Shown piece after piece: positions 6,159-51,305 of a stretch of 64,000 bases of DNA. Numbering within the stretch: the stretch's first letter is position 1; each line of letters opens with the position of its first letter. The stretch spans positions 5,057,419 to 5,121,418 of the forward strand of contig OZ250155.1 of assembly GCA_965237775.1 (NCBI GenBank), read 5' to 3'. Made by a program: the position numbers and the translations under genes. A model generated the notes under the pieces. It saw only the letters and a list, made by a program, of their open reading frames with translations, was not told the DNA's origin and ran no database searches. Source of the stretch: Dehalococcoidia bacterium (GTDB lineage: Bacteria > Chloroflexota > Dehalococcoidia > Lucifugimonadales > UBA3495).

Positions 6159-6169
6159 TTTTTCTCCCG

Positions 6170-7346: not shown

Positions 7347-7733
7347 TCAGGCCGCCCTCCTCCGCCGGACCGCCGGGTCCCGGGCCACCTGGGCGCCTCT
7401 TGGCGGCTTGTTCCACACACAGAGCAGTTCGACCCCGGCGTCCCGGAGTTCCCTGGCGTACTTCGCCTGGTCTGCCGCGCCCGCGGTGAACCGCCAGCGT
7501 TCGTACGTGATGACGGCGCCGAAGGGTCTGCTTTCCGGCCTGGCCTCTTCCATCATCCGCTGGAACTGGGGCCGGCCGCGTGGGCCCCGATCGTACTCCT
7601 CGTCCTCGTATTCCCGGACGATGGTCATGCCCATGGCGTCCGCGAGCCGCCGGATGGACTCGGCCTGGTAGGCGGCCGTCAGGGTATCGCCCGGGAACAC
7701 CCAGATGTAGGAAGCTGCCCGGTTATGGTGCAT
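7347..7733 (-). CDS. Resolvase N-terminal-domain protein with degenerate active site
   Basis: AASYIWVFP replaces the Y.RVS motif. IVREYED, RPQFQRMM, AVITYERWRF and ELRDAGVELL follow the resolvase fold pattern. Confidence 0.7.
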   Translation of the reverse strand: MHHNRAASYIWVFPGDTLTAAYQAESIRRLADAMGMTIVREYEDEEYDRGPRGRPQFQRMMEEARPESRPFGAVITYERWRFTAGAADQAKYARELRDAGVELLCVWNKPPRGAQVARDPAVRRRRAA

Positions 7734-7904
7734 CCGGTCCCTCCCATCGGCGTTGTCTGCTGACGCCCCGCCACCGGCGGCGGACCGCCGGCGCCCTTAG
7801 GGGAGATTTCCTGCGTGTTTCCGGCCCGGGCGGATTTGTTCTGGGTCCCTTTCTCAGGGAATCCGCCTTGTTTTGGGGATTGTGCTGGGGTTTTGCCCAC
7901 AGGT

Positions 7905-7992
7905 TCAACTCTGTGCAAAATTGGATTTCCTAGCCGGGTGAATTTTGTGCACTTTGGCGCTTTGCACGAGAAGTCGGAAGAGCGGCACGATC
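7905..7992. repeat. Non-coding motif X, repeated at 17425-17522
   Basis: Shared TCTGTG.AAAATTGGATTTCC..GCCGGGTGAATT...GCACGAGAA.TCGGAAGA.CGGCACGA. Confidence 0.8.
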
Positions 7993-8060
7993 TTCCCCTG
8001 TAGAGGGAACCTAGATGCGGACGGGGAAGACGAGTCAGAGACACTCCAACCTTATGGCAT

Positions 8061-8564
8061 CTACCTCGTGAACGCTCGGATGGTGAGGAATGGCGCAGGA
8101 CCCTCCAGTTCAAGCGCGCTGACGACGCCGGCCTCCTTCAGGGCCTTGGCTCCTTCGGGGTCCGTCTTGGGCATGGTAGATATCGTTTCCAACCATGCGG
8201 AGTCCTGGGCGTCGTACAGTCCCTCGTCCAGCGCACACTGGTTGATAACTCTCAGCCTGCGATCCCTCTCAGCCCGCTCCTCGGGGTTGGCGGATCGTAT
8301 GGCCTCAATGGCCTTCATGTCCAACGGCGGCCCCGTCTGCGCTGCGGCGTTCCCGGCGGCCGCGGCGGCGATCAGGATGAGGACCGCGAGGATTGCCGGG
8401 ACTGTCCTGGGAATCCGGGCTCGTTCTGAGGTCTTCAAGGGTTCCTCATCTCGTGATATGCGGATATTTCCACCGTAACGCAGGAGGTGGTTCTCCCGTT
8501 TTAACAAGGGAGAAGATGGGTATGCGCATGGTCTTTTCACCTTGCCTCCGTTATGTAAATTCAA
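8061..8564 (-). CDS. Secreted hypothetical protein (probably internally deleted), paralog of 18435-19049
   Basis: Signal-like hydrophobic stretch; shared C-terminus CA...GLYDAQD.AW...DP..A.....AG.V..LE..GPAPFL. Start codon uncertain. Confidence 0.6.
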   Translation of the reverse strand: MNLHNGGKVKRPCAYPSSPLLKRENHLLRYGGNIRISRDEEPLKTSERARIPRTVPAILAVLILIAAAAAGNAAAQTGPPLDMKAIEAIRSANPEERAERDRRLRVINQCALDEGLYDAQDSAWLETISTMPKTDPEGAKALKEAGVVSALELEGPAPFLTIRAFTR

Positions 8565-8625
8565 CGTAGCACGGTGTTGACGTCCCGCGTTTTATCGTTT
8601 TCGCAGGTCGAGGGTTCCGGGGCCC
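8520..8625. repeat. Non-coding motif Y (promoter/RBS or recombination site), repeated at 15235-15340 and partly at ~10706-10740
   Basis: Identical core TAAATTCAACGTAGCACGGTGTTGACGTCCCGCGTTTTA with TCAAC/GTTGA dyad. Confidence 0.8.
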
Positions 8626-8848
8626 TGGATGTCCTTGGACGCACCTCGTCCATGGGAATGTTGGGGCGCGGTCCTTCCGGGTCTCGGGCCTCTTGCGGGC
8701 TGTGCCTGGCTGGCCTGGTCGGCCGGTATGGCCTGGGGCGGCTGTGCCTGGCTGGCCTGTGGCCGCGGTGTGTGGCTCGGCCCTTTTTCTTTCTGCTCTG
8801 CCGGGTGAAAGGGGATGGGCTGAATACTGTCCCCGGTCCTCTTTTCCC

Positions 8849-10522
8849 CTACGGGGTGATGGTCCATCGGACCTCCGCCGCCTTTCCGCCCCGGGCATGG
8901 ACGTAGGCCGTGTACCGGCCCGGTCTCCACCTTTTGGGCGGCGTCGGACCCGCGGAGGAACCGAGGGTGCCGCCTATGTAATGCTCCTCCATCGTGACGT
9001 CCCGTGCGCTCTCTTGGAACCGGTGCCCGTCCTCGTACATGACGCTTATCGTGAACCGCACGGTCCTGGGAGGCCCGGAGAACCGGTGCTCGTACGCCAT
9101 CCAGATGAACAGGGGTTCTCTGATCTTGCCAGAGGAGAACGACTCCCTCGAGGTTCCGGCGGCGCCCTCCCGGACCTCTATCCCGGTTATCCTCCCGTTC
9201 ACTTGGGGCATATCCGGGTTCGGCTTCGACCTGTCGTAGAGGTCCTCCCGGTAGGGCCCTTTTCCGTCGTGCCAGCGGTCCATGACCCTCTGGGCCGCCT
9301 GCGAGGGAAACTCTGCCCTCAGCCGCTCCACGGCCGTGGTTCCCGCGTCCGGCCTCTTCCGGTACATGCACACCATGCCCAGGCGGAACTCGTGCGTTCC
9401 GGCCGTGTCGTGGAGGTCGATGAAGAGCCTGTGTCCCAGCGCGTAGTCGCAGAGGCGGGACGTGTCCGACGGCGGCATCTCCTTGATGCTGCCGTACCGG
9501 AAGCAGGGCGGTTTCCTGGGGTGCATCCTCCGCCCCTCCTCGGCGCTTTCTAGGAACTCCGTTATGAAGTCGGCCATGCCCTCGTTCACCCACTTTTCGT
9601 CGCTGTTCCAGTAGTAGTGGGCGACCTCGTGGGCGGTTACCCCGGGCAGTGCCTTCTCCTTGCCCTCGGTCTGTGGGGTGATGACTATGGCAGCCCCGTA
9701 GTTGGCACCCGCGAACCCCGGCGCTGCCGTGTCGGCGAAGAGGAGCACGGCCATGTCTGTTGGGAACGGCTCGCCCATGAATCTCTCCGCGCCTCGCACC
9801 GCTCTTTCCAGCAGGTCCATGGCCTCTCTGGAACGGACGGGTCCGGTCCTGATGACCCTGAGTTCGACGGTTCCCGCCAGGGGCAGGCTGACGCTTCTGC
9901 TCTCCATCTGGGCCTCTCCCAGGCCCGGTAGGATGTCGGCGAGCTCGGGGTTCCTCTTCCGCACGGCTCCCAGCGCGGCTATCAGCGGGGTCTGCCGGTT
10001 GGTGATCCCGCCTGTCAGCCCCGGGTGCTCAAGCAGCCTTCCGGGCGCGTCGGAGTCGTCCTGGAGGAGGATGTTTATCTCCCGGAGCGCCTGCAGGTCT
10101 CCGGGCCCGTGGTCCTTGAGGAACGGCATCCCGAGCAGGGATACCGTCTCCTCCGAGTGTTTCCTCGCCAGCGCGTAGAGGAGCTGCTCCAGCGTCCTCT
10201 CCTCCCGGTCTGTCAGCCCGTCGGCGATCCACGGCAGGGCTGTTATGGTCCTGGCCGTCTCCGGGTGGGCATGCTCCAGCCAGGCGGCGTTCCGCAGGTC
10301 CGTGAACGAGCTCAGCCGGCCCGAGCCCTGCCTGGGCGCCCTGGTGGGGGCGGGCGTGCTCCTCTGGTTTATGGCCGGGGTGGCCGTTGGTTTGGGAGGC
10401 GTTGGCCGGGGAGCGCAGGTGGGATACGCAAGGTTGGCGGGCGCGGGGAGCGAGGTTTCCGGTGAAGGCCCGGAGCAGGCGATGGTGAGCGCGGCCGCAA
10501 GGGCCAGGAGGACGGCTCTCAT
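8849..10522 (-). CDS. Lipoprotein zinc metallopeptidase (gluzincin/M1-like)
   Basis: Lipobox LTIAC, Pro-rich linker, HEVAH...WVNEGMA (HEXXH plus downstream E). Confidence 0.82.
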   Translation of the reverse strand: MRAVLLALAAALTIACSGPSPETSLPAPANLAYPTCAPRPTPPKPTATPAINQRSTPAPTRAPRQGSGRLSSFTDLRNAAWLEHAHPETARTITALPWIADGLTDREERTLEQLLYALARKHSEETVSLLGMPFLKDHGPGDLQALREINILLQDDSDAPGRLLEHPGLTGGITNRQTPLIAALGAVRKRNPELADILPGLGEAQMESRSVSLPLAGTVELRVIRTGPVRSREAMDLLERAVRGAERFMGEPFPTDMAVLLFADTAAPGFAGANYGAAIVITPQTEGKEKALPGVTAHEVAHYYWNSDEKWVNEGMADFITEFLESAEEGRRMHPRKPPCFRYGSIKEMPPSDTSRLCDYALGHRLFIDLHDTAGTHEFRLGMVCMYRKRPDAGTTAVERLRAEFPSQAAQRVMDRWHDGKGPYREDLYDRSKPNPDMPQVNGRITGIEVREGAAGTSRESFSSGKIREPLFIWMAYEHRFSGPPRTVRFTISVMYEDGHRFQESARDVTMEEHYIGGTLGSSAGPTPPKRWRPGRYTAYVHARGGKAAEVRWTITP

Positions 10523-10692
10523 TGGGCGATGTGGGGGCTTACATCTGCGGTGAGATCTTCAAGCCACCTGCCGTCGGTGCTTTGCGGACCCATCTCGTCA
10601 ACTGTTCGGATAGCCTCACCGATGACTTTCTGGGCGTTGATGCCTTGCGTCTTGTCGTCCGGGAAGTTCTGTTTCGTCATGCACGGATTGTT

Positions 10693-10956
10693 TCAGGTGT
10701 CCGCCTTCCCGCGTTTTATCGTTTTGGTTGGGGACCGGCCCGGCGGCGCTCGGGTTTTCGGCGCCTCCTCCTGGAGGTCTCCGCTCCCCAGCTTCTCCAC
10801 CTCCTTGTTGTGGATCTGGTGGCAGTCCCCGTAGCGGATGGGGGTGATGACGAGCGGGTCCTCGCTCTGGATGTAGTAGTAGGCGTGCCCGCCCGGCACC
10901 GGGAAGCTCCAGAGCCTGTCCGCCGGTATCGCCTGCATGGACTCGAGCTCCCGCAC
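10693..10956 (-). CDS. Small hypothetical protein or gene fragment
   Basis: Protein-like composition (WSFPVPGGHAYYYIQSEDPLV); no family recognised. Confidence 0.35.
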   Translation of the reverse strand: MRELESMQAIPADRLWSFPVPGGHAYYYIQSEDPLVITPIRYGDCHQIHNKEVEKLGSGDLQEEAPKTRAPPGRSPTKTIKRGKADT

Positions 10957-11554
10957 GAGGGCCTTCCTGATTTGTTTGAGCGCCCGGGCGCGGGCGTTGC
11001 GGCCGGGGACGCCGCGTGCGTGCCCGTGGGGCTCGGGGCGCCGGTGGCATGGGGCTCCGGCGTCCGGGGGCAGGAGATGGCGAGCCCGGCCCGGCCGCGG
11101 GGGCGAGGGAGACGGCTCTCATCGGACGGCGGGTCCTCTGTGCTGAAGTCTGCCCTCAAGCTGTCAGCAGGGGAGCCGCCCGGGTTTTACCGTTTTGTGA
11201 GGCGTCCTGCGCTCATGTTGCCGAGGGTGCCGCTTGTTGATCCCGCGTGGTTCCTGCCGCGCAGGCGCGGCCGTTTTTGTTCCTCGCGCCGGTGTGGTGT
11301 TTGCCGGAAGATGGCTGGGTGTTTCCTCGGCTCTCGTACGTCCGGGGCGGGTGCGCCCCCGCCCGGAAGTCCATTTTGCGCAAGAAGGGCCGTGGCCTTA
11401 CCGGGATGGACGACGCAGCGACGTTGAGCGATGGGGACACCGTCACGTGGCCGGATGCGCCGCCGGATTCGCGTACATCGGGGTGCGGTGTGAGGTTGAC
11501 AACAGCCGCGTCATCTTCCCGTGGGGCTGGGCGTCGTCCCGTGCGTCCGCTCGT

Positions 11555-11660
11555 TTCCACCTGGCCGTCCTCGTCCCGGCCCAGGGTTGCCACCCTGGCG
11601 TTGTCGTAGAGGCAGCGCCGGGGCGCCCTGTCCAGGTGCTCGAAGGCGTTCACTTGCACT
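11555..11660 (-). pseudogene. IS21-family transposase fragment
   Basis: NAFEHLDRAPRRCLYDNARVA resembles the IstA catalytic-core motif. Confidence 0.6.
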
Positions 11661-11728
11661 GGATGAAGGCTGCCCGTCGCCCTGGGGGTTGGGGCCCGCC
11701 GCGAGACGGGCCCCTGGATGTTGCGTGG

Positions 11729-14700
11729 TTATTCCCACGGTGTGGCGTATACCAGTGGCGCATTGGCCCCCCACGGGCTGGAGTAGCCGTTCCGGTATGC
11801 CTTTACGGTGTACTCGTACGCGACACCGGCCTGTGCGCTGTGGTCGATGTGGGATGTGGATGGTCCCCTGGTGTAGGCGACCAGGACATGGTCCCGGTAG
11901 GAGTCTCCGATCCTGAGACTGTCGGAGGCCAGCTTCCGGTATATGCGGTAGTTGGTCACCTGTCCGGCGCGTTCCTGCGGGGGATTCCATGTCAGCCTGA
12001 CGGTGGTGGGGTCCAGCATGCGGGCTTCGAGGTCCCGGGGTGCGTTTTCCCACTGGCGCTCCGCCGCCGGCATGACGACGTGGGCCGTTACGCCCTCCTT
12101 TTGGGGGCCTTTGATCCCGAAGTGGTTCTGGGCCAGCACCCGGTAGGTGGTCTCGGAGTTGTACCCGGTTGTCATGCGGATCGTGGTGATATGACCGCCT
12201 GTTGCGCCGACTATGGTGTACTCGTTCGGGTTTCCCTCCTTGGTCTGGACGATGTAGTTCCTGGATTGACCGCTGGCGGGCTTTTCCCAGTGCAGCCTCA
12301 CGCTGGAGGCGCCCTCGCGGTTGAAGGTCAGCGCCGGCACAGCTGCCGGGGTGGTCACGGTGGCCCGTTCGATTGCCGACCAGTCGCCGGCAACCTTGTC
12401 CTTGAGGGCCCGCACCTGGTACTCGTGGAGCGTCTGGTCGGTGGACCAGTCCGCGAAGTAGAGGCGCAGGGTGGTGTCCTGGTATTGCCATTCGCCGCTG
12501 TCTATGCGGTATCGGAGCTGGTAGCCGGTTACGCCCGGCGTCTCCGACTTCGGCCACTGGACGAACAGTTGCGTCCCGAAGGGAGTGAGGGTGAACTTCT
12601 TCGGCGGCGCGGCGGTCCGGTACCAGACTCCGGTGGCGATTTCGCTCCACTGGCTGACGCCGCCGGCGTTCTCGGCCCTGACCCGGTACTCGTGGGTGGC
12701 GCCCGGGGTGGGGCCGGTGTGGCGGTGGCTGGTCTGCGCGGCGGCCACGGTGGCGCTGTTCCACCGTTCGGTGTTCTGTTCTCTGAACTGGACCCGGTAC
12801 TCGTCGATGAAGTTGCCGGCGGGCCTGGTCCAGCTCACCAGGATGTCGTCTCCGCTGATGGCGGCTGTCACGCCCGTGGGAACGCCGGGCGGGATGACCC
12901 ACATGGCTGACACGGGTCCGGCCCATGGGCTGCTGCCGGCGGAGTTCACCGAGCGCACCTGGTACGAGTGGGTGATGTCCCCTGTGGCTCCCAGGTGGGT
13001 GAACGAGGTCTCGCTGGCGTTCACGCTGGCCGTGGTGGTCTCGTCGGAGCCGCTCACGCCGTACTGGACCTGGTAGGTGTCGACGATGCCGGCTTGGGGC
13101 GCGGTCCACGAGACGGTGATGGCGGAACCGCTCACTGCGGCGGCGAGTTCGGCCGGCGCTGCCGGCGCCAACGTGCGGCTGGCGGTGAGGGTCTCGGACC
13201 ACGCGCTTTCGCCGGCCGTGTTGTGGGCGCGGACCCGGTACTGGTACGTCACGCCCTCGGTGTTGTCCGAGTGCGTGAAGGAGGTCTCGTTCGCCGCCCT
13301 GTTGACGGTCTCCAGGCTCCCTGCGTCCTGCTCGCCGTAATGCACCCGGTAGCCGTCGGCGGTGCCGGTCTCAGGGGCTCCCCAGGACAGGACGATGTCC
13401 GATTCGCCCACGGCTGCGGCGAAGTTGGTCGGGGCCGATGGCGCCAGGCGGCGCATGATCTCCACGTCCTCGGACCAGGGGCTGTCTCCGGCGTCGTTGT
13501 GGGCCCGTACTGCGATGCGGTATGCGACGTCGCCGGTTGCGTCCGTCAGCCGGAAGGCGGTCTGGGCCTCGGGGATGAGGTCGCTCTCCACGGGGTCGGC
13601 GTCTCCGGCCTGGTGGCTGACGGTGTAGCCGTTCACGTGGACCGTGCCGGGCCGTTCCCAGGTCAGCACGATGTCATCCCCGTCGATTTCTGCCGACACG
13701 TTCTGCGGCACGGCCGGCGGCGTCACGCGGGTGGCGGATGCCGGGTCGGACCAGGGGCCGTTGCCGGCGGAGTTGTGGGCCTGCACGGCGTACCTGTGCG
13801 TCACGTCGGCCTGGGCGCCTTCGTGCCGGTAGGTGGTGCCGGTGATGGCCTCGGCCAGCTTGTGCCAATCTCCGTCGCCGGTGGCGTGGCGCACCCGGTA
13901 GCCGTCGATGAAGGGGCTGTCGGGCGCCGTCCACGCGAGGACGTTGTCGTCGCCCTCCACCGTGGCGGTCAGGCCGGCGGGCCTGCCGGGCAGCGAGATC
14001 ATGGTCACCGGCTCGGACTCGGCCCAAGTGGACCCGCCGTGCCGGTTGCGGTGCTGCACCCGGTAGCGGTACTCCACGTTGGCCTGAGCAGTATCGTCGG
14101 AGTGGCTGTTCTGGGTGACGTCGGCCGGGTCCTGCCAGCCGCCCTGCTCGTCCCGCCGCTCGAGGCGGTATCCGGCGACCGTGCCGGCCGTGGGCGCGGA
14201 CCAGCTGAGGTCGATGACGCCTTCGCCCACGGTGGCCGTCAGGCCGGACGGCGGGGCCGGGGCCTCGATGTCGGCGGACGCCGACTCGTCGCTGATGTTG
14301 TCGGCGCTTCGCGCCCTCACCGCATACGAGTAGGGGACGCCGTCCTCTGCGGCGCTGTCCGTGTGGGCGTTGGCGGTGACGTTGTCGGCCAGCACGGTTG
14401 CGGCTGCGCCCCGGTCGTTCCTGAGCACCTGGTATCCGGTGACTTCCGGTCCTTGGGCCGGCTCCTCCCACGAGACCGTTACGGTCCCGTCGAAGGGGTC
14501 CGATATGGACGCCGATACCGCCGTCGGCGGCAGCACTGGCCGGGCCGGCACTGTCACCGCCGTCTCGGCGGCCGGGCTGTTGCCGATGGCGTTTCTAGCC
14601 ATGACCCGGTAGGTGTAGGTGGTGCTGAAGGCTGCGTTGTCGTCGGTAAAAGAGGTGGCGCCCTTGCCGGGGGTTGAGATCTCCGTTTCCTGGCCGCCGT

Positions 14701-19241: not shown

Positions 19242-19412
19242 GGGAGCTATCACGCCCACTAAATTGAAGATGAACATCCTTCTCCTCGGCGTGTTAACGT
19301 GCGCGCTCGTGGCCTGTTAACGTCGGCACCAACAACGACGCCTATCCGCGCCCCGCAGGAGCCCGTCCCGGAGATAGCGGAAGCCCTCCTCTGGGAGGTA
19401 GACAAACACGAC
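19242..19412 (+). mobile_element. Decayed left part of the lipoprotein cassette also found at 45802-46021
   Basis: Begins GGGAGCTATCACGCCCACTAAATTGAAGATGAACATCC; near-identical to 45802-46021 with an internal deletion and a stop. Confidence 0.8.
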
Positions 19413-19564
19413 CTAAACTAAAGCCAAGGTGAAATGTACATATCGCTGACCGCACTGTCGGTGGCCACCCTTTTGGGGCTTAAGGGTGATATGAGGTGCC
19501 GTGGAGTCCTCTCGGTCGTCTTCAAGACACCCGAAATGCACATCCCACCTTGGTATTGGTTTAG
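19413..19564. mobile_element. IS630-end MITE, core type A (152 bp)
   Basis: CTAAACTAAAGCCAAGGTGAAATGTACAT ... ATGCACATCCCACCTTGGTATTGGTTTAG inverted ends. Confidence 0.88.
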
Positions 19565-34783: not shown

Positions 34784-34935
34784 CTAAACTAAGGCCAAGG
34801 TGAAATGTACATATCGCCAGACCACACTGGCGGTGGCCACCCAGTTGGACCTTAAAGGTGATATGAGGTGCTGTGGAGTCTTTTGGTCGTCTTCAAGACC
34901 CCAGAAATGCACATCCCACCTCGGTATTGGTTTAG
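34784..34935. mobile_element. IS630-end MITE, core type A (152 bp)
   Basis: Same ends and core as 19413-19564. Confidence 0.88.
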
Positions 34936-35027: not shown

Positions 35028-35894
35028 CTACCTAAGCCTTTCTCCGGGTCTGAAGCTGCCGTCTAGCCACTCGACGAAGTTGCCAGCATGAAGGAGGTAC
35101 GTCCGCTTGGTGCTCGCTGTCAGGCCCGAGGTTTCGACCTCCCCGCAGTACCGTGCGAAGGCTCGTCGCACCCCGGCTATGGTCTTCGGAGGAAGCGCAC
35201 GTTTCCGATGTAACGGCCCTTTTGCCCGATCTTCCCGTTGGTCAGTCGCACCGGCGGTTTGCCTCATCTGCTCCTCAATATCTGGAGACCAGAGGTTTCC
35301 CTGCTCCGATCGTTCCTTATTGCGGTACTTCTCTATCCACCGGGCGTCAATTGGTGGCAAATTCGGACGGCGCTCGTAGACCAGCATCTCCTTTACGCTT
35401 AGTAGTTGCATCACCGGGTAAGCCCTGGTCCCGCCGTCTGCATCGTGTAGGTCGACCGTCCCGAGGCCGGTGGCGAACTGCGTCCATTTGCTGGAGGAGG
35501 GATACAGAGTGATCAGGACAGACATCGGGACACGCCCTTTCCGTTTGTCCTCCCTGGTCTGGACGCCCAACAATTCGTCCAGAACGGCTCTACTGACTCC
35601 GGCTTGGTGCATCTTCGCTTGGATTGGGACCATGACGCCACCGACGCCATAGTAACGTGCGTCAATCCCGCCGTCGCCGCCTTTCTTGCCGTTTGGGACA
35701 GCGTCCAACAGGTCAGCTATGTAATCTTCCGCCCAAGCCCAACCGGGTTCTCCGGTGCCTGCCGCTCGTTCTGTTTTGATAGCCTCCCGTTCGAATGCCT
35801 TCCATGCGCGGTCATCGTATTCCTCCAACGCGTCTAACAAGGGGTTCTCCATGGACTTTGCCTCCAAGCGGACCTGTACTCGTTTGAGCATCAC
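35028..35894 (-). CDS. Mrr-like PD-(D/E)XK restriction-endonuclease-domain protein
   Basis: AFEREA...GGDGGIDA...PIQAKM matches the Mrr_cat D-x-G-I-D...Q-x-K signature. Confidence 0.65.
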   Translation of the reverse strand: MMLKRVQVRLEAKSMENPLLDALEEYDDRAWKAFEREAIKTERAAGTGEPGWAWAEDYIADLLDAVPNGKKGGDGGIDARYYGVGGVMVPIQAKMHQAGVSRAVLDELLGVQTREDKRKGRVPMSVLITLYPSSSKWTQFATGLGTVDLHDADGGTRAYPVMQLLSVKEMLVYERRPNLPPIDARWIEKYRNKERSEQGNLWSPDIEEQMRQTAGATDQREDRAKGPLHRKRALPPKTIAGVRRAFARYCGEVETSGLTASTKRTYLLHAGNFVEWLDGSFRPGERLR

Positions 35895-36003: not shown

Positions 36004-36155
36004 CTAAACCAATACCAAGGTGGGATGTGCACTTCGGGGTCTTGAGGACAACCGAAAGGACTCCACAGCTCCTCATATCACCTTTGGGCCCCAATTGGGT
36101 CGCCACTGACAGTGCGGTCCGGTGATATGTACATTTCACCTTGGCTTTAGTTTAG
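36004..36155. mobile_element. IS630-end MITE, core type A in reverse orientation (152 bp)
   Basis: Closely similar to the reverse complement of 19413-19564 and 34784-34935. Confidence 0.88.
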
Positions 36156-36334
36156 TTGTGGCAGCCCCGGGCTTGGATGTCCCAGACGGCCTCGACCTTC
36201 CCGTTGCGGATACCGATGAAGCGGTCCAAACGGCTTACGGTGGCGTCCTGCTGGGACGGGATTAAGGTCACCTGGTCTCCTACTTCCAGGGTTGCGCCCT
36301 CGTCTACGCGGAAGACAACGTGGTCCGGGTCCAT
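36152..36334 (-). pseudogene. C-terminal fragment of a DSD1/D-threonine-aldolase-like PLP enzyme
   Basis: LEVGDQVTLIP...DATV...VEAVWDIQARG tail. Confidence 0.6.
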
Positions 36335-36710
36335 TGGCCAGGTTGTAGGCGAACCAGCCGTCGCCGGTCCGGAAGGTCTGGGGCTTCGCGGTCTGGGCGT
36401 CCCGCATGATGCCCAGGACGTCCGAGTAGGGCTCGAAGCTCACGATCTTGTCGAACCGGACCCGGAACTTCTTCCTCGCCCCGGCGAAGTACAGGTGCTT
36501 GGTCGTGAGGCCCAGCAGGCCGGTGTCGGCGTGTACCGTCTCCTCCCATTCTATGGGCCTGCTCCGGAACTGGCGAGGGCTGTAATAGGGGAATTGTCCA
36601 GCCCGTTAGACCCGCGCACTAAGGCGCTAGAGATAGTGACAAGACAGGATAACGTAGCCTATTCCAAGTCAACAGGAAAAAGGATGCTATCTCTCACGGG
36701 CAAAGCTGGA

Positions 36711-36944
36711 TCAAATTAAGGCCGGATGAGTTATCTCGTAGCCGTTATCGGTGGGTGTAAGAATCATCTCATGAATATGGCTGCCCTCCGGGTTGTGGAA
36801 ATGCGCGACCGAAACGTCACCCAACTTACCCTGCTCTAGTTCAGGAAAGGGGTGCGAGTGGACGTGTTGGTGCTTGTGGGATAATTCAATTGTTTCAATC
36901 GTGAGTTGCCAATGGTCTTCTCGGTTAACGTTGTCTTTGGTCAA
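36711..36944 (-). CDS. Small His-rich hypothetical protein
   Basis: HKHQHVHSH, HFH and HIH motifs; GGAG RBS upstream. Confidence 0.5.
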   Translation of the reverse strand: MTKDNVNREDHWQLTIETIELSHKHQHVHSHPFPELEQGKLGDVSVAHFHNPEGSHIHEMILTPTDNGYEITHPALI

Positions 36945-37095
36945 TTCTTTCTCCTCCGAGGATTGTAATTGGAGGGCTAGACCCGTTGGCCATTTGGGTG
37001 TGTTTTTTCTCTATCAGCAACACCTCGTCGGGCTATTGGGGCTGACAGCTAGGCAGTCTCCCCAAGCGGTGGCATCTTTTGTAGAATAAGAGGGT

Positions 37096-37170
37096 GCCTC
37101 CGTAGGTCAATGGAAAGAGTATTCCTTTGACGCAAGAAGAGGTATGAGTTCGAGTCCCATCGGGGCACCC
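37096..37170 (+). tRNA. Degenerate tRNA-like gene, anticodon GAC (Val), probably a pseudo-tRNA
   Basis: GCCTCCG-TA-GGTC-AATGGAAA-GAGT-A-TTCCT-TTGACGC-AAGAA-GAGGT-ATGAG-TTCGAGT-CCCAT-CGGGGCA; cloverleaf spacing and T-loop are intact, with mismatches in each stem. Confidence 0.6.
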
Positions 37171-37345
37171 TCCTACATCACCATCGTACTATAACCGCCG
37201 ATTGCTTGGAATCCTTTGGCAGTTGACTTGTCCAGGGGCTTGCTTGGAGTTGTCGTCTTGCTAAAATAGATGGGACCGACGTGCGGGTCGGTCCCCAACC
37301 GGTGGTGGTACCGCCATGACATTCAACGAGAGGAGTTACTGAGGT

Positions 37346-37537
37346 ATGTTTATCGCGATAGCCGCCACCCTCGGCGCCATCGGTTTGGCGGGCCATGCCC
37401 TCGGCCCAGTTGTGTCGGCCTCTCATACTGAGCGGGAGGCGGCGGACGTGATCCACGCGACCTCGTTCTTCATTCTAGGCGCTGCGTTCTGGTATGCCAC
37501 CCCGACCCTCACGAAGTGGCTGGGGATGGGAATTTAG
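37346..37537 (+). CDS. Small two-helix membrane protein
   Basis: GAGGT RBS; two hydrophobic segments in 63 aa. Confidence 0.5.
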   Translation: MFIAIAATLGAIGLAGHALGPVVSASHTEREAADVIHATSFFILGAAFWYATPTLTKWLGMGI

Positions 37538-38635
37538 TCGAATCCGTGATTCTCATAGACAATTGGCCTCTTGCTCAAGTTCGCCACGGTCGCCCATGCG
37601 CTTAACCACCTGTTGTCTTCAGGGATAGGGATCTAGCGGGCTGGATAATTCCCCTGTAATAGAGTCCTCTTGCCACCCGGATACTGACACCGTGGGACGT
37701 GCCGCGGCGCACCACGGTCTCCGGGTAGTCCACGTCCTGGATCACCCAGACGAGCTGCTCGGATTTCATGAGGTTGAAGGGAACGGGGCCGGTGATGTTC
37801 TGGCGCTGGGGGACGATTCCTCGGGTGACGTCCCGGATGACCGCGGCCTGGACCAGGCTGGTCTGGACGCCGTTACTGTCCAGGTCGTGTTGCTCCAGAC
37901 CGAAGTGGGCGGCGTACTTGGCCAGCGCGTTCTCCTCGTCAAGGGACAGCAGGCCGTCCTCCAGGGCCCCCTCCACGGCGGCCTCCCAGGCGCGGATGAG
38001 GATCCTTCTCCGCTGGTGGAAGTCCAGGCGGGCTTCCTGCATGGCGTCTTCCAGGTCCCTGAGGTGGCCATCCCCGTCCTGGACGGCGATGGCGGCCAAC
38101 CTGGCCTCCAGCATGAGGCGTTGTCCCGAGGCTTGATCGAGGTCCCAGATGGCGTCCGCGTCCGCGGCGTTGTCCTCAAGGGTGAGGTGGTCCCGAAAGG
38201 CCCGGAGCCTTTCCTCCTCTTCGCGGGATATGATGCCGTCGCGCAGGGCGTGGGCGACGCCCTGCTTCCAGCCCTCCTCGAGGGCGCGTTCGATATCTTC
38301 GTCAATGGCGTGGGAGCGTTGGGCGATGGCCGATAGGGACTGCCTGAGAGCTGCCTCGTTGAAGGAATGGGTCGTGGCGGCCTGGGCGGCCAACTGGACC
38401 ATCTCGTTCCAGCCGGTCGAGTGGTTCTGCCGGCATTCCGGGTGCTCCCGCTGGAAGACCCCGGTGGGCTGGCCGCAGTGGCGGCAGGTCCCGCTTATCA
38501 ACTGGAGGAATCGGGCGAGGGGCATGGTTCTCCTCGTACTCGGATGCCCTGTGTTCGTATCGGCAATCGCCAGGGAATCGTTTCTTGGAGCCAACCTGGT
38601 GCGTTCCGGGTTGTCTGCGGGCTACCCCGTGAAGA

Positions 38636-39957: not shown

Positions 39958-40575
39958 CTATGGGCAATAGTTCTTGCTAATCTCAGCATTGAATTCTGCA
40001 GGGTCGTACCAGTAGCACCCAACGCAAGTCCCTCTGTATTGGCTGTCTCCTACTGTCCATCCTACTGAGTAATGAAGTTCCCTTGCATCAAATCGTGTTT
40101 TCGAAGATTGGCAACGGTCACAGTGTGTTCGTTTCGCTCCGTTGACAGCTTTTGTCATGGGCTGATAATCCGATGGTTCGAGCCGCCTGGGGATGTCTTT
40201 GCGCCCGTCTTTGTGGTCTGCTTCGAGGTTGGCGCTTGTGCCGAGCACCACGCAGCGTTGGTTGCTGGTTACTGCCTTCCGTAGCCAATCAGGGGTTTGT
40301 GTGTTAATTGGCCGGTCGTTGAATCCCATCAGCTGAATTGAACTGATGCTGCCTTTGGAACCATCTCTGGTACGTCCGATGATGTATTTTCTGCCCAGTG
40401 GCCCGTCGCTCCTGCACCATGAGCCTCCATTGCCGAAGTTGTTCAGTTTCGCGTACTCGCCTATGAATTCTTCACGTCTCACTACTCTGGACACGCCTCT
40501 ATGGTCAGGCTCTGCTATTTCTTCAAATAATCCTGCTAAGCCTTGTAGTTTTCTCGCTCTTGGGTCAAGCGTCAT
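39958..40575 (-). CDS. NlaIII/IceA1-like HNH restriction endonuclease
   Basis: LF.E.A.PD..GVSR, GNGGSWCR, DHKDGRKD, N..KR..C..C...RFDA and CVGCYWYDP are recalled hallmarks of NlaIII/IceA1. Confidence 0.8.
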   Translation of the reverse strand: MTLDPRARKLQGLAGLFEEIAEPDHRGVSRVVRREEFIGEYAKLNNFGNGGSWCRSDGPLGRKYIIGRTRDGSKGSISSIQLMGFNDRPINTQTPDWLRKAVTSNQRCVVLGTSANLEADHKDGRKDIPRRLEPSDYQPMTKAVNGAKRTHCDRCQSSKTRFDARELHYSVGWTVGDSQYRGTCVGCYWYDPAEFNAEISKNYCP

Positions 40576-41423
40576 TCGCTGACCTCTTTGACTCGGCCCT
40601 TTGCTACTTCGACGTACTGGGGGTCAATGTCTCCTCCGATGAACTTTCGGTTATTGCTCACAGCTGCGACTGCGGTTGTTCCGGATCCCAGGAATGGGTC
40701 TACTATGATGTTGTTGGGATTAGAATGGATTCGTACTAATTCGTTGAATAGCTGGAGCGGTTTCTGTGTGGGGTGGAGCCTTTTGCCCCCATCTCTTGGT
40801 ATCGGCATCCGGAACACCCCTGAGTGGTACTTTTCGTTGAATGTTGGGTTGCTCCCTTTTACTCCGAGTAGAGCAATTTCCCTGCTGTTTGTCAGGTAAT
40901 TGACGCGCTGATTCAGGGGTACGGGGTTGCTTTTTTCCCATACGATGAGTCTCCGTTGCTTGAAACCTGCTTCTAGCATTGCTTGGGATAGGTACGACAG
41001 TTTCCACAGGTCGTACCAGATGATTGCAGTGCCGCCTTTCCTTAGGCAGGAGTAAACCAGTCTGGCTAGTTGTGGGAGGTCTATCATCGACTTGTCCCAT
41101 TCCCCGAAGTCCATGTTGACCCTGAGCCGTTTTACCCCACGAGTTCCGCAGTTTTTGAATCCAGTATTTTTACTTATTGTGTAAGGTGGGTCTGTTAGTA
41201 CGAGGTCAATATTCCCTGACTCTAGGCGAGCTAGCAAGTCAGTGTAGTCCTCGACTGTTATCTGAGGTTCTTTCCCTGGTTTGGTTAGGTCAGGCTCGTT
41301 CGGATCAGTGTTGGTTCGCGTACCGGTGGCGACCAGGTCCACCGTCTCCGAGTTCGTCCCCCGGAGGACGTCGAGGTTGTCCATGTTGTACAGGACGTTA
41401 TCTGAGAAGTTCTGCCCGGCCAC
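40572..41423 (-). CDS. N4/N6 DNA methyltransferase (beta order); the first ~33 aa come from a different MTase gene
   Basis: TDPPY, HPTQKP, DPFLGSGTT. The N-terminal DNLDVLRG.NSETVDL.AT stops just before its own DPP motif, with a GC shift near 41325. Confidence 0.88.
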   Translation of the reverse strand: MAGQNFSDNVLYNMDNLDVLRGTNSETVDLVATGTRTNTDPNEPDLTKPGKEPQITVEDYTDLLARLESGNIDLVLTDPPYTISKNTGFKNCGTRGVKRLRVNMDFGEWDKSMIDLPQLARLVYSCLRKGGTAIIWYDLWKLSYLSQAMLEAGFKQRRLIVWEKSNPVPLNQRVNYLTNSREIALLGVKGSNPTFNEKYHSGVFRMPIPRDGGKRLHPTQKPLQLFNELVRIHSNPNNIIVDPFLGSGTTAVAAVSNNRKFIGGDIDPQYVEVAKGRVKEVSE

Positions 41424-45121: not shown

Positions 45122-46021
45122 CCCGAATCCACCGAAGGAGGGCGTCGGGTCAGCTACCTGAAGCGGCTGGAAGGTGCTCCTGTGCATCTGGGATGATGGT
45201 TTGAAACAGCATACCGGCCCCGAAGCAGGAGCACCCAATAGATGCTGCCACGCAACCACCCCGACCGCATCCAAATCGCCTTCGACGACCACCGCCTGGT
45301 GGCCAACGCCGGCCTGCTCCTTCCAGCCACCTTGGCCCTGCACCTCGGCCTTTCCCAATTGGTACAGCAGCGCCTGGACCTGGGCGATGCGCCGGGCCGG
45401 GCCAACCCCGGCGACAAGATAATGACGCTGGTCGCTTCCGCGCTGGCTGGCGGCGACTGCATCGACGACGCCGATGCGTTGCGCGCTGGCGGGGTGGCCT
45501 GCGCTCTCGGCAGCGTAGTCAAGGCGCCATCCACCCTGGGCACTTTCCTGCGCAGCTTTCGCTGGGGCCACGTCCGCCAACTGGACCGGGTGAGCCGCGA
45601 GTTGCTGGCACGGGCATGGCAGGCCGGAGCCGGACCCGGCGACGCGCCATTTACCATCGACCTCGATTCCACCATCTGCGCGACCTACGGGTTGGCAAAG
45701 GAGGGAGCGCGCCATCATGGTTACACCCGCCAGCGGGGCTATCACCCGCTGCTGGCCGTGGCCGCTGGCACCGGCGACGTGCTGATGGCCCGGCTGCGGG
45801 GGGGAACTATCCCGCCCACTAAATTGAAGATGAACATCCTTTGCCTCGGCGTGTTAGCGTGCGCTCTCGTGGCCTGCTCAACGTCGGGACCAACAACGAC
45901 GCCTATCCGCGCCCTGCAGGAGCCCGTCCCCGAGGCGATGGAAGACATGGTCGGGGAGTGGGTGCGGGAGCACGCTCCGGAGATAGCGGAAGCCCTCCTC
46001 CGGGAGGTAGACAAACACGAC

Positions 46022-46162
46022 CTAAACTAAAGCCAAGGTGAAATGTGCATTTCCGGAATCTGCAGCGACTCGGCAGACCTTCCTCCAATTGCAGGACATA
46101 GATACTACCGGGATACTTGAGTCCCATTTCCCTGTACCCCCCAATATAGATTCCACCTTGGC
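46022..46162. mobile_element. IS630-end MITE, core type C, inner TIR truncated
   Basis: Left end CTAAACTAAAGCCAAGGTGAAATGTGCAT; right end stops after ATATAGATTCCACCTTGGC. Confidence 0.8.
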
Positions 46163-46409
46163 GTTACAATATTATGGACCGGGAGGAGCAGCGGAGACCG
46201 TCTGAGACTGAAGGAGACCAGGACTAGGTCTGCTTCACCCTCATCACCATATCCACCAGGTGCCAATGGTATCCGCGCCGGTTTAACGGGCGGACTGGAC
46301 AGTCCCATCCGCCGCGTAATAGCAGAGCGGGGACCGTAAGTAAACCGCATCTAGCCCGTTTCCGGGGACCTGGAGTTCGTGGGCTCCCAATCTTCATTCC
46401 GAGGAGAAC

Positions 46410-48008
46410 ATGACTCATACGGAGAATGCGACAATGCGGATGCTGAAATGGTTCGCCCCTATCTTTGCCGCCGGAACGTTGACCGTATTCGCCGCTTGCG
46501 CGTCCGCCTCCACCAGCGAACCTGCGCTCGAACCCACGGCGACGCCTGCGGACGATTCGCCGCAGGCGCCGTCCGTTTCAACTGTCATTGGCACGCCCGT
46601 ACCTCGTTCTGATGTCGGGACGGTTTTCGACAGACCCTTGTCCTCCGGTCTGTCCGTTGCCGACGTGACGGAGAACGCGCTGCCCAGCGTGGTCCAAATC
46701 ATCGCGGGTTCCGGCTCCGGGACGGGTTTCATCATCAACGAGAACGGGCTGACGGTCACCAACAGGCACGTAGTCGAAGGGAATAACCGGGTTGCCGTCC
46801 GGCTGGCGACAGGGGAGGAATACCGGGGCAGCGTGACCGAACGGCATCCAAACCTCGATTTGGCCTACGTCGAGATTGACGCCAACCGGCGTTTCACCCC
46901 CATAGCTATTGGCAACTCCGACAAAATCCGCGTTGGCGACGACGTTATCGCCATCGGTTTCCCCTTGGGCCGGTCACTGGGGCTGGAGCCTACGGTCAGC
47001 GTCGGAATCATCTCGGCCAAGCGGAATAACCGCCTGCAAACGGACGCATCCCTGAATCCGGGAAACAGCGGCGGGCCGCTGCTGGATATGTTCGGCCAGG
47101 TCGCCGGAGTGGTTGTCTCCAGGGTGGAAACCAACAAAGCCGGAAGGCCCGTCACCGGCATCGGCTTCGCCATTCCCATCAACGCGGTGAAGTCGGGGCT
47201 TGGGGGGCAGGTTTCCCGGGCCGGCAGGGCGCTGCCCACGCCCACCCTGACGCCCTTCCCGGCGATAGCCCTGCCCCCAAACGTCGAGGCCACCAAGGCT
47301 GCGATGGACGCCATAGACGCCCACCGGCGGCAGGTGGAGCAGGCCACCCGCACGGCCATCGAAGCACAGCAGGAAGCCGAGCGCTACGCCGCCTCCCTGG
47401 AAGCCACCCGCATCGCCGAACTGCCCACACCGACGCCAACGCCGCTGCCGACGGCCACCCCGACGCCGACACCTACGCCCTTGCCCACGGCCACGCCGAC
47501 TCCAACGCCCACGCCAACACCGGAACCCACGCCGACCCCACTACCCACGCCCACACCGCATCCACGCACGTTCTGCCAGGAATGGGAAGCCCTGGCGCTT
47601 GATTGGATAAAGCAGGGCAATAACTATTACAATTCGAATTATCCTCAATCACGTGGAGTGTCCTCAGTTGTACCTGACCACTCCCAGTTGTCTGCTAAGG
47701 AAGCGCACTCGTTGTGTCTTACTGCATTATTCCCGCTCGGCATCATAGAAAATAGAGGTAGTTCGAGCGTCGGAGATGGGCAAGGCCAGCTTCTGCCGGG
47801 CACTTATGAGTACCGGAGGGAGGGAGATAAGCGTGTGCCGGGGAGATGCCAGATCAATCTCAACTGGAACGAGGATAACCAGCAATCCGTAAAGATGCCC
47901 CACGGTGAGCCATTCACTTTCCGGTTCTATCAGTATCATGGGAAGGTTAGCTATGGGGCGGAATACAGGGACCGTTGCGACGGTGCCCTCTACCGCATTG
48001 GGGACTGA
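46410..48008 (+). CDS. Lipoprotein trypsin-like (S1C/HtrA-type, no PDZ) serine protease with PT linker
   Basis: FAAC lipobox; [28 protein letters not shown]; Pro-Thr repeats at about 47420-47560. Confidence 0.9.
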
Positions 48009-48078
48009 TTTGCCTCTAAAGTCGGAATCGTGGCAAGGGAAGGTTTGATACTTCCCTCAATAACAGAGAGATAGATGT

Positions 48079-48291
48079 ATGACGTACAGGGAAATTCAAC
48101 GCAGTGCAGCTCAAAAACTGGGCGTCCAACCATCTTCAGTGAAGACCTGCTGGATAGCGGAGGTAAAGCGCGAGTTTGGGCTTACACAAGGGAGGGCGCC
48201 AAAAGCCGGCCAAGGCCGAGGCGCCCCACCATGCCCGCCTCGTTATCGTGATGCGATTACACAGTGCATCCGTGCCCGCTCTTTAAAATAG
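48079..48291 (+). CDS. Small basic hypothetical protein
   Basis: TYREIQ...KTCWIAEVKREFGL...PCPP...AI; resembles a small domain seen at some RlmD C-termini (recalled, unverified). Confidence 0.6.
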   Translation: MTYREIQRSAAQKLGVQPSSVKTCWIAEVKREFGLTQGRAPKAGQGRGAPPCPPRYRDAITQCIRARSLK

Positions 48292-48299
48292 ACGTTACC

Positions 48300-48395
48300 G
48301 TTGGGCATAAGGGAGATGAAGCGGTTCCTCGAACAGTTGCAATTGGATGCGGGCGATGTAAGGAGGCGGATTCATCTGGCTCCTACACCGCTTGG
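48300..48395 (+). pseudogene. IS630 transposase N-terminal fragment
   Basis: Similar to 41575-41660 (RE..RFL.Q.Q.DA.D.RRR..LA). Confidence 0.55.
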
Positions 48396-48552
48396 GCTTT
48401 GTCCTGAAGCGGCCCAGGAAACGGTTGGCTTGGCCGGTTCAGCGACTTGGAGCGCGTAGGGCGGTCCGGACTGTTAAGCTCCAATCATGTTGATGAAACG
48501 TATGCCCCGGACTTCCTGGAGACTCTCAGACGACTGGTAGACCGGATGAGGT

Positions 48553-49236
48553 ATGAGGATTGTGAACGACAGCCCGATAGTTGTCATCCAATGCGCCGGC
48601 AGCAAGCAGAGCCATGCCGGTTGCCTTGGCCTTCGCAGCAGTGGGGAAGTGCTGTTCGTCTCCGACCCGGATAAAGCTCCCCAAGACGAATATACCTATG
48701 CTCATCCCGACGGCCAAGCGGACATTGGGGAGACGTGGCGGGAGAAGTTGTGGCGATACAATAAACGGCATAAGGACGCTCCAGGAGACAACCCTTTGGG
48801 GCTGCTGCCCGCCTGGCAGCTTTACAGGCATCCGATCTATGCCCGACTGGCGGAAAAGTACGGGCCGGAGCACCTCTACATCCTGTCGGCTGGCTGGGGC
48901 CTGATTAGGGCAGGTTTTCTGACGCCGGACTATGACATTACCTTCAGCAACAATGCAGAACCCTACAATCGCAGGCGCGAACGGGATGCTTACGACGATT
49001 GGCGTATGCTGCCTGACGACACTGCCGAGCCGGTCGTATTCTTCGGCGGCAAAAGCTATATAAAGCTGTTTTGTGCATTGACCGAACGGGTGAAAGGGCC
49101 GAGGCACGTATTCTTTAATTCACGGAATGCGCCGGATGCACCAGGTTGCCATCTCCGAAAGTTCGACACCAGAACCAGAACCAACTGGCACTATGAATGC
49201 GCCCGAGCATTTATGGACGGGAAGGTCAAGATTTAG
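48553..49236 (+). CDS. DUF6884/YaaA-like hypothetical protein
   Basis: VIQCAGSK, PAWQLY and ILSAGWGLI...YD.TF pattern. Confidence 0.6.
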   Translation: MRIVNDSPIVVIQCAGSKQSHAGCLGLRSSGEVLFVSDPDKAPQDEYTYAHPDGQADIGETWREKLWRYNKRHKDAPGDNPLGLLPAWQLYRHPIYARLAEKYGPEHLYILSAGWGLIRAGFLTPDYDITFSNNAEPYNRRRERDAYDDWRMLPDDTAEPVVFFGGKSYIKLFCALTERVKGPRHVFFNSRNAPDAPGCHLRKFDTRTRTNWHYECARAFMDGKVKI

Positions 49237-49244
49237 AAACAATG

Positions 49245-49460
49245 TCAAAATAGTAACCGGTGCTGACGACGATACCAGAGATGGGAGTACGCCAAGTGGA
49301 TCAGCCCCTTGTAGTTGGATACCTCTTTGTCATAGCGGACCAGGGTCGCCCGGTGCTTGGACAGCCAGGCCAACGTGCGTTCCACCACCCAGCGACGGGC
49401 CGGAAAGATGAGGTGAAGCGGCGCTGCCGGACCGTCCTGCAATCAAAGCCGAAGGGCCAG
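49245..49460. pseudogene. IS5-family C-terminal fragment (minus) joined to an IS630 C-terminal fragment (plus)
   Basis: RRWVVERTLAWL...LVRYDK on the minus strand; RKDEVKRRCRTVLQS on the plus strand matches 42455-42500. Confidence 0.7.
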
Positions 49461-49584
49461 TAGTCCGAAAACTCCGAAATGATGAGTAACCGAGTTGGAT
49501 ATGACTTGCCGAAACACCTTGGCTGGTGGTCTTCACGGGTCAAAAACCAGCCCATTCACCCATCAATACAAAGGCGTTGGTCTA

Positions 49585-49735
49585 CTAAACCAAAGCCAAG
49601 GTGAAATACGCATATGGAGAAAGTCATCGGCGGCGCCGGACCACCTCCAAGTGCAGGTGGAAGAGCTTCACCGTGCGCGCCTGAGCCAATCTTCATCGCC
49701 CCGCAAATGTAGATTCCACCTTGGCTTTAGTTTAG
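49585..49735. mobile_element. IS630-end MITE, core type B (151 bp)
   Basis: Same ends; core shares GGAAGAGCTTCAC and GCCAATCTTCATCGCCCC with 33772-33924. Confidence 0.88.
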
Positions 49736-51305
49736 GTGCCAAGTTGTCGGGAAACGAGAGCCTAACCGAGAAGGTCGCGGCTGCCTTGGTCGTGGGTGCC
49801 ACCATCCGGGCTGAGGGCGGGGTGTCCACCACCATTGGCTGGGACGTTGATGTGGGCAACGAGTTGGGAACCGTATTCTACGGAACATTACCTGTGGTGA
49901 TGAGGGTGGCCGAGGCCAAGATCGACGCTGAACCGTACTATGACGGAGCCATGCTTTGCATTCGCGACGCGACAGATGGGTGGGTTAGGGAGAAGTGTTC
50001 GGATGGGTAGCTCCTCCGTCTCGCTTCCCAATGGTCCTGCAGGACCATTGGGAGTTTAGCGGGTGGGATAGTTCCCGGCTGCGCGAGGGCCGCGCCAACA
50101 CCGCTCGGGGCGCCGCCCACTTCCTGTGGGAGACCGTGGGGCGGGTGCGCCATGCCGGGGCCAAGGGGCAACTCACGGTGCGGACCGACAGCGGCTTCTA
50201 CACCCACGCCGTGGTTGCCGTCTGTCGCAAGACGAAGGTCCGCTTCTCCATCACCATCCGCCAGCGTGCCAGCCTGCGCAATCTCATTGAAGCCATACCC
50301 GAGGCGGACTGGACGCCCATCCCTTACTGGATGGACGGTGCCGCCGACGTGGCCGAGACCGCTTACACTCCCTTCAGGAGCAAGCCCGATGCCGCGCCGG
50401 TGCGGCTCATCGTCCGGCGGGTGAAGCCCACGCCCGGTTCCCAGCTGGCCCTCTTCGCCAGCTACAGCTATCACGGCTTCATCACCGACCGGGACGGGGA
50501 TACCCTGGAGCTGGAGGCCGACCATCGCCGCCACGCCGAGGTCGAAAATGCCATCCGAGACCTCAAGTACGGCGTGGGACTCAATCATCTCCCGTCAGGC
50601 CGTTTCGCCGCCAACGCCGCCTGGCTGGCCGTCCAGGCGCTGGCGCATAACCTGGCCCGCTGGACGGCGCGGCTCGGCCTGGGTGAACGGATCGTGACCA
50701 CCAAGACGCTCCGGCGGCGGTTCTTCTCCCTGGCCGGACGGCTCACCCGCTCGGCACGCCGTCTCACCTTGCACCTTCCGCAAAGCTGGCCCTGGGAAAC
50801 CCAGTTCTACAGCGCCCTGGCCCGATTGCGCGCCCTCCCCCTCCCTTCCTTCCTGACGGCGTGGTCGGCAGCCGGCCCGCCTCGGACCTCATCCTCACCC
50901 GCCAGCCAATCAAACGTCTCCCCAACTCGTGCCAGATGGGCCAGCGAGAGTTTCCCGCTGCCTTCGGTCTCTCCATGAGCAGCGCCCCACGGCCACCGCC
51001 GGCAGCCACTGGCCCAGCCTGCCTCAAATCCGCCCGGACGATCGCGGCTCCATGCCCCTCACGTCCCATTCCACTGCCCCCACAACGCCGCTCGGTGGAT
51101 TCGGGCTAAGGCTGTAGACAATATAGGTTCTCGAAAGGCCAATCTTCGAGTAGAATCCGATAGCATCCATAGACGGAGCAACCACCGAAATCCGTTTCTA
51201 CCTTCGTTGACCAGTCAACAGCCAGAAACTAAAATCCTGTATGACTCGACTGGCCCAGGAACGGTAGAAGCTGCAACCCCTCGACCGCGAGAATGAGTTT
51301 AGATA

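Follow-up and report, generated by a model that had tools for sequence, protein, structure and literature searches.

A transposase-free insertion with IS1595-type ends in a Dehalococcoidia host gene: a probable mobile insertion cassette

What kind of DNA separates the two parts of a minus-strand gene in contig OZ250155.1 of the Dehalococcoidia bacterium assembly GCA_965237775.1, and how did it come to lie there? The window, i.e. the whole stretch of 64,000 nucleotides that was analysed (positions 5,057,419 to 5,121,418 of the forward strand), holds at 36589-37653 an element of 1065 bp within that gene, which is very probably a non-autonomous mobile insertion cassette (MIC) of an IS1595 lineage found in one Dehalococcoidia family. 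A first-pass annotation of the window had described a transposase-free cassette that landed in a host gene, and this description is supported. The evidence consists of the ends of the element, the duplicated target, the precise interruption of the gene, the lack of an internal transposase, and the occurrence of the same ends on both transposase-bearing and transposase-free elements elsewhere. The boundaries are listed below together with the two parts of the host gene, which were placed by in-silico excision and homologue alignment.

36580-36588, no strand: left copy of the target-site duplication, CTGTAATAG, a perfect direct repeat
36589-36610, plus strand: left terminal inverted repeat (TIR), GGGAATTGTCCAGCCCGTTAGA, 22 bp
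37632-37653, minus strand: right TIR in inward reading, GGGAATTATCCAGCCCGCTAGA, 22 bp
37654-37662, no strand: right copy of the target-site duplication, CTGTAATAG, a perfect direct repeat of 9 bp
37663-38594, minus strand: N-terminal 310 codons of the host gene
36147-36588, minus strand: C-terminal remainder of the host gene

The inverted ends agree at 20/22 positions. As the cassette starts with G and finishes with C, the true length of the duplication may be 8 or 9 bp. A chance control for inverted repeats matching at 20/22 positions or better within 5 kb found 7 distinct loci in the window, the cassette's included, and 0 in each of 10 block shuffles of the window. The G+C content of the element is 53.1%, compared to 62.7% in 1 kb on each side and 60.5% in the genome. 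Hence the TIRs of about 22 bp, the perfect 9-bp duplication (8 bp being possible) and the lower G+C content relative to the flanks that had been reported at first pass were all recovered.

In its present state the host frame is cut after residue 310 and continues for 20 codons inside the element, ending at a stop at 37602. Scripted removal of 36589-37662, which is the element plus one copy of the repeat, resulted in a minus-strand open reading frame (ORF) of 457 codons. When compared with intact homologues, the rebuilt ORF aligned without a gap at the junction in 5/5 cases, the best having 63% identity over 365 aa, and the excised junction DNA gave contiguous alignments to paralogous loci in the same genome at ~70-80% identity. 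Homologues of the N-terminal part are present in 14/41 genomes searched (own genome included), with open frames of ~375-426 aa. The clean interruption of a host ORF, also part of the earlier description, is thus confirmed at the level of the reading frame.

Metagenome contigs were used as a further view of the site. Contigs from 3/4 runs connect 36579 directly to 37654, omitting 1074 bases, where 8-9 letters fit both sides; the depth of these joints is 223.6 (X2), 96.1 (X6) and 4.8 (X8). As the runs are metagenomic, the shorter sides of the joints cover just 19-97 letters and the host gene has paralogues, the joints are no proof of a presence/absence polymorphism, and they are only suggestive of an unoccupied site in close relatives. 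In X2, a single contig of 1125 letters spans the entire element with 0 differences, and this contig may come from the same organism.

No trace of a transposase was found in the interior. A tblastn search of the cassette with four IS1595 transposases gave no match at E<=10, and a Pfam and PHROGs scan of the seven ORFs of at least 40 aa gave nothing at or below E 0.01, so that the decayed transposase named at first pass as an outcome that would refute the cassette description did not appear. In PMC3129680, MICs are elements with the inverted ends of an insertion sequence (IS), a target duplication and passenger DNA, which lack a transposase and are presumed to be mobilised in trans. The absence of a transposase remnant places the cassette under this definition.

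The lineage of the element was determined from its ends. A degenerate end consensus was used for an exact search in one genome per prokaryotic species, which returned nine loci, all of them titled Dehalococcoidia and all metagenome-assembled genomes:

L008: complete element of 5.77 kb with an 8-bp duplication, a 322-aa protein carrying PF12762 (E 1.7e-39) and PF12760, and passenger genes
L006: transposase carrying PF12762 and PF12760, immediately inside the end
L009: truncated zinc-ribbon ORF (IS1595-type) adjoining the end
L011 and L012: 568-bp elements with both ends, without transposase
L013: 2049-bp element with both ends, without transposase, carrying a DUF4145 gene and flanked by a 9-bp duplication
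L005, L007 and L010: a single end within 6 kb

The right end of the cassette is identical at 22/22 positions to ends in L008 and L009, and every transposase ORF found next to such ends, namely those of L006 and L008 and the truncated form in L009, has PF12762 and/or PF12760. The duplication of L012 is 7-8 bp long, while the flanks of L011 agree at just ~6-7/8 positions. IS1595-type transposases are found in 104/203 genomes of the bacterial family (E<=1e-40). Among these, ends resembling the consensus adjoin transposases with 53-75% identity to that of L008 at L038, L050, L053 and L057, and in a weaker form at L046; for more distant transposases (44-59% identity) the ends agree only over the first nine bases or so. 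The same ends therefore do occur elsewhere and bound other cargo, contrary to the case in which the first-pass annotation would have failed.

According to PMC8101967, IS1595 members usually make 8-bp duplications and encode zinc-ribbon and DDE_Tnp_IS1595 domains, and Merlin elements, which are related, begin with GG and duplicate 8-9 bp. The cassette has ends in common with elements encoding DDE_Tnp_IS1595, GG termini and a duplication of 8-9 bp. According to bioRxiv 10.1101/2021.05.26.445724, passenger-carrying 'transporter IS' (tIS) are confined to the IS1595 and IS66 families.

Two further observations concern the loci of this end family. At the right end of the L013 cassette, L013:7982-8049 is a 68-bp mini-element consisting of two family ends back to back. 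A zinc-ribbon plus DUF4145-type protein is a repeated cargo (L008:8285-8881, L010:6754-7506 and L013:6048-6833); the Pfam match is found in L010 and L013, and the L008 copy is weakly similar to that of L013 (E 4e-4).

In the own genome, a search allowing mismatches found cassette-type ends within this window only. Three elements of this type are present, i.e. the cassette at 36589-37653, a 4.27-kb element at 45802-50076 and a solo left end at 19242, all within 31 kb of a variable region with many recombinases and genes of restriction-modification systems. The genome has one PF12762 gene only, which lies inside a passenger-carrying element of 2755 bp (G000:C1:3994695-3997449). This resident IS1595 transposase is 42-44% identical to that of L008, and the ends of its element match those of the cassette only over the first 9-10 bases. 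The first-pass annotation had proposed to look for the autonomous transposase by way of the TIR; in this genome the ends are confined to the window and no cognate transposase is present, but IS1595 transposases stand beside the same ends in other genomes. The resident element (L036, with a part in L014) has a G+C content of 53.5%, 24-bp ends matching at 22/24 positions and an 8-bp duplication, TATGTTTT; its cargo comprises the 323-aa transposase, a 220-aa ORF and a coiled-coil ORF of 93 aa. A solo end of a resident IS1595-type element lies at ~2807108.

How the cassette arrived can be outlined as follows. The 22-bp ends would be recognised by a DDE transposase of IS1595 type, with a zinc ribbon and a DDE domain, that was provided in trans, and the cassette would have been inserted at a staggered cut in the host gene, giving rise to the 8-9-bp duplication and the truncated gene. 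The cargo is foreign DNA, comprising the gene of a small His-rich protein, a tRNA-Val(GAC) relic and a small membrane ORF. As the genome is without a transposase of the cognate clade, the cassette is probably now stranded there, and the variable region with all three elements may have arrived from a donor with an active transposase.

Several points weigh against this account. The cassette is single-copy in its own genome of 5.12 Mb, which is without a cognate transposase, so that the partner expected for a MIC is missing from this genome. Mobilisation in trans is an inference. Taken at face value, the duplication has 9 bp, one more than the IS1595 norm of 8. Of the nine related loci, three (L005, L007 and L010) are one-ended within 6 kb, and the candidate left end of L006 is weak, having 7 mismatches and no duplication. 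The end pattern itself holds ~36 bits by an arithmetic estimate, and some exact chance matches are consequently expected in very large collections; a metagenome scan with the pattern indeed gave 4 matches, the contigs all being of 41-44% G+C. These four were judged to be chance or unrelated matches, as two lie within ORFs and two are the same sequence without IS features. The pattern had 0 matches in viral contigs, and a class-level scan allowing at most 1 mismatch found it in 0/400 other genomes, a sample including only one genome of the host's family.

All three parts of the cargo reported by the first-pass annotation were located. Together with the signals around them they are:

36711-36944, minus strand: His-rich ORF of 77 aa with a TTG start
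37083-37110, minus strand: promoter-like site (TTGACC, 16 nt, TATTCT; 9/12), a consensus match only
37095-37170, plus strand: degenerate tRNA-Val(GAC)-like sequence, called tRNA-Val(gac) by ARAGORN
37272-37295, minus strand: terminator-like hairpin with a perfect 9-bp stem and, after it, a T-rich tail on that strand
37346-37537, plus strand: hydrophobic ORF of 63 aa with one known homologue at 94% identity

Passenger coding is represented by the 77-aa ORF, which has conserved homologues, and by the 63-aa ORF, which has one. The latter probably has two membrane helices, as judged by eye.

The His-rich ORF is preceded by a GGAGGAG Shine-Dalgarno sequence 6 nt upstream of its TTG (plus-strand positions 36951-36957). 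The promoter-like site lies upstream of it, sharing positions with the 5' portion of the tRNA-like gene, which is on the opposite strand. A word-index homology search for the 77-aa ORF returned the self-match only, which reflects the sensitivity limit of that method, because exhaustive phmmer found 4 short homologues with E-values from 1.4e-22 to 4.2e-4 and identities of 62-42%; two repetitive proteins among the phmmer matches were regarded as spurious. A profile search found 9 other clusters, all metagenome-derived and none named. The family alignment shows a GYEIxHP motif as well as nine invariant His in four HxH pairs. No member turned up in 202 other genomes of the bacterial family or in 400 sampled from the phylum, none was confirmed in viral contigs, and the phage and plasmid collections had no match.

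For the same ORF, nothing was found in Pfam, in the protein atlas or by a profile search of PDB sequences. A single-sequence structure model was unusable (pLDDT, the predicted local distance difference test score, of 47). An alignment-based AlphaFold model reached a pLDDT of 65.8, which is low to moderate, and was all-beta; it matched no fold in the PDB at E<=0.001. The pattern of conservation indicates that the 77-aa ORF is a real gene belonging to a rare uncharacterised family with nine invariant His. Binding of metal by the protein is a reasonable, if speculative, guess.

The third part of the cargo raises the question of whether the tRNA-like sequence is a gene in use. By its features it is clearly tRNA-derived: its Rfam E-value is 0.0031 in 2.2 kb, tRNA-Val genes in relatives are 74-75% identical to it, and the canonical T loop, the D-loop GG and U33 are kept. 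The acceptor helix is lengthened by complementary flanks, 37087-37098 pairing with 37164-37175, and 37080-37185 folds better than shuffles (z -2.9). Its score of 28.4 bits is, on the other hand, just under the gathering threshold of 29 for Rfam RF00005, while the scores of five host tRNAs lie at 52.3-73.9. The anticodon, T and D stems of the tRNA-like sequence contain mismatches, its acceptor stem has either a bulge or a mismatch, and the 3' end is CCC with no encoded CCA, whereas the host Val tRNAs encode CCA. The first-pass annotation spoke of a cassette delivering a tRNA-like gene; a tRNA-derived sequence is indeed present, but with a score below the threshold and several stem defects the wording was too strong.

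One alternative is that this sequence is functional cargo, either an unusual tRNA-Val or a tRNA-shaped regulatory RNA, and the reason why the cassette was kept. In its favour are the clear tRNA ancestry, the fold with its flank-extended acceptor helix and the odd, well-formed tRNA likewise held by the autonomous relative L008; in addition, PMC5389517 describes irregular tRNAs in connection with transposable elements and toxin-antitoxin loci. All five host tRNAs tested (52-74 bits) are nevertheless well above the threshold that this sequence misses, the stem mismatches, the acceptor defect and the missing CCA affect the body itself, a sound tRNA-Val(GAC) is already encoded by the host, and just 2/7 of the two-ended elements examined have any tRNA-like call. 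We therefore consider a functional role unlikely, and the sequence is most likely a pseudogene carried along with the foreign DNA.

Two tRNAs with unusual build were seen in or beside related elements. L008:8028-8122, inside the 6001-11770 element, is a well-formed tRNA of 95 nt with a long variable arm and a 6-bp anticodon stem. It has the anticodon UUC (Glu), G73 and an encoded CCA, so that a Ser/Sec-like body is combined here with an anticodon other than Ser, on a mobile element. The tRNA-Sec model gives it 42.6 bits, under the threshold of 47 bits. L013:4556-4650, also of 95 nt and similar in build, has the anticodon CCA (Trp), G73 and CCA, and scores 56 bits; it is closest to the host Ser tRNAs (0.63-0.72 identity) and lies 1.35 kb outside the transposase-free cassette at 6001-8049. 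A second ARAGORN 'tRNA-Val(gac)' in the own genome, at G000:C1:545134-545208, has no Rfam tRNA match, and just its 3' half is in common with the real gene (578568-578644); the two together resemble the attachment-site repeats that an integrated element of ~33 kb would have.

The long-arm Glu-anticodon tRNA of L008, the Trp-anticodon tRNA of L013 and the precedent in PMC5389517 are the basis for a wider proposal, namely that the IS1595 lineage of Dehalococcoidia serves as a vehicle for non-standard tRNA genes. We hold this to be a rather remote proposal, weakened by the low share of two-ended elements with a tRNA-like call (2/7) and by the decayed look of the copy in the cassette. If it were true and the tRNAs were expressed, missense or recoding tRNAs, or regulators shaped like tRNAs, would be spread from one genome to another by the elements. 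A limited literature search found no paper describing a tRNA gene as MIC cargo, which is a weak negative.

The origin of the cargo was also considered. Divergent tRNA-like genes together with small orphan ORFs are a pattern common in phages, and the cargo has both, at a G+C content below that of the host; the first-pass annotation had accordingly suggested captured, possibly phage, DNA. However, the element matched none of 50,697 phage records by blastn, the 77-aa ORF likewise matched none of the phage records by tblastn, the end pattern is absent from viral contigs, and the His-rich family has no viral-contig relative. PHROGs gave just one weak row, at E 0.015, for the 63-aa ORF. With the viral searches blank save for this row, the suggestion was not borne out, and a phage origin is doubtful. 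Plasmid searches at the DNA and protein levels gave no match to the cassette or cargo.

The family assignment made at first pass, that of an IS256/Mutator-type derivative, was based on GG-starting ends and the 8-9-bp duplication, and these are also traits of IS256. It is contradicted by the transposase ORFs beside the ends in L006, L008 and (truncated) L009, all of which have IS1595 domains, and by the 4-5 more loci at which consensus ends adjoin transposases of the IS1595 clade. No IS256-type gene was seen beside such ends, although no search was aimed at PF00872. As all transposases at these ends are IS1595-type and the published family traits fit, the IS256/Mutator assignment is unsupported and its probability very low. 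The idea that chance produced both the ends and the duplication, without any mobile element, can be dismissed, given that 10/10 shuffles have 0 comparable inverted repeats, that the host gene is precisely interrupted and that the same ends recur in other genomes.

The IS1595-type cassette may be compared with four kinds of known element. MIC231, derived from IS231, and the qnrD/qnrS2 cassettes are examples of MICs, and members carrying passengers are known from the ISNwi1 group of IS1595. With MICs, the cassette shares inverted IS ends, a target duplication, passenger DNA and the missing transposase. It differs in its IS1595-type lineage in Dehalococcoidia, in having no resistance or known adaptive gene, in a cargo made up of a His-rich protein, a tRNA relic and a membrane peptide, and in the lack of a cognate transposase in the genome. 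With IS1595 tIS, it shares the ends, which are the same as those of L008 and L006, whose elements hold a zinc-ribbon and DDE_Tnp_IS1595 transposase together with passengers, and also the 8-9-bp duplication and the GG termini; it differs in being without a transposase. As MICs and IS1595 tIS are both already in print, the type of element is already known.

MITEs (miniature inverted-repeat transposable elements) are alike in being non-autonomous derivatives with IS ends, and the related loci do hold 568-bp elements and a 68-bp end pair, but the cassette has 1065 bp and at least one real gene and so is not a short non-coding element. Finally, the allo-tRNAs and tRNA pseudogenes of transposable elements treated by Mukai et al. 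(PMC5389517) resemble the cassette in that a stem-disrupted, tRNA-derived sequence lies inside a mobile element. The body in the cassette is, in contrast, class I and Val-like, not Ser- or Sec-like, and no 8/4 or 9/3 acceptor/T-arm structure could be assigned to it: in a manual reading the helix can be drawn with 9 pairs, the T arm has 5 pairs and the variable region is short.

The two other members of the end family in the window are:

19242-19263, plus strand: solo left end of the same family, the first ~174 bp homologous to L011/L012
45802-50076, plus strand: second element with ends of this family, 4.27 kb long, lying within an IS1380-like transposase gene

The IS1380-like gene is split by the second element into PF13701 halves, beginning at 45242 and ending at 50978, respectively. 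The ends of this element are 97-99% identical to the 568-bp cassettes L011 and L012, and L011 occupies the same site in the same kind of transposase gene. Around 3.7 kb of extra DNA lies inside (~46025-49732), with a small palindromic repeat in inverted copies at its borders, and encodes a 532-aa trypsin-like protease and a DUF6884-like ORF. At the solo left end, 19242-19420 has 88-91% identity over ~135 bp to the lipoprotein-encoding left ends of L011/L012; no right end was found for it.

The palindromic repeat, of ~150 bp, occurs at 19413-19564, 34784-34935, 36004-36155 and 46022-46053, and the genome has 14 matches of at least 100 nt. Two inverted copies bracket an Mrr-like nuclease gene at 35028-35894, adjoining the interrupted host gene, and the repeat may be a MITE forming composite structures. 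At 39958-41423, an IceA-like nuclease gene (PF05315, E 9e-38) lies beside an N6/N4 DNA methylase, likely forming a restriction-modification pair. Serine recombinases are encoded at 1.6-5.2 kb, and the part at 51-58 kb has further methylase, DndB-like and Eco57I-like genes. The window as a whole is variable and rich in defence genes.

What the IS1595-type cassette means for these bacteria is fourfold. A cassette family, occurring with and without transposase, is added to the poorly annotated mobile DNA of Dehalococcoidia, and the corrected family assignment matters for its annotation. Two leads result, namely a rare family of small proteins with nine invariant His, and the recurring odd tRNA genes in or beside the elements of this lineage. 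The cassette also displays a route by which small foreign genes can enter such genomes without phage or plasmid signatures.

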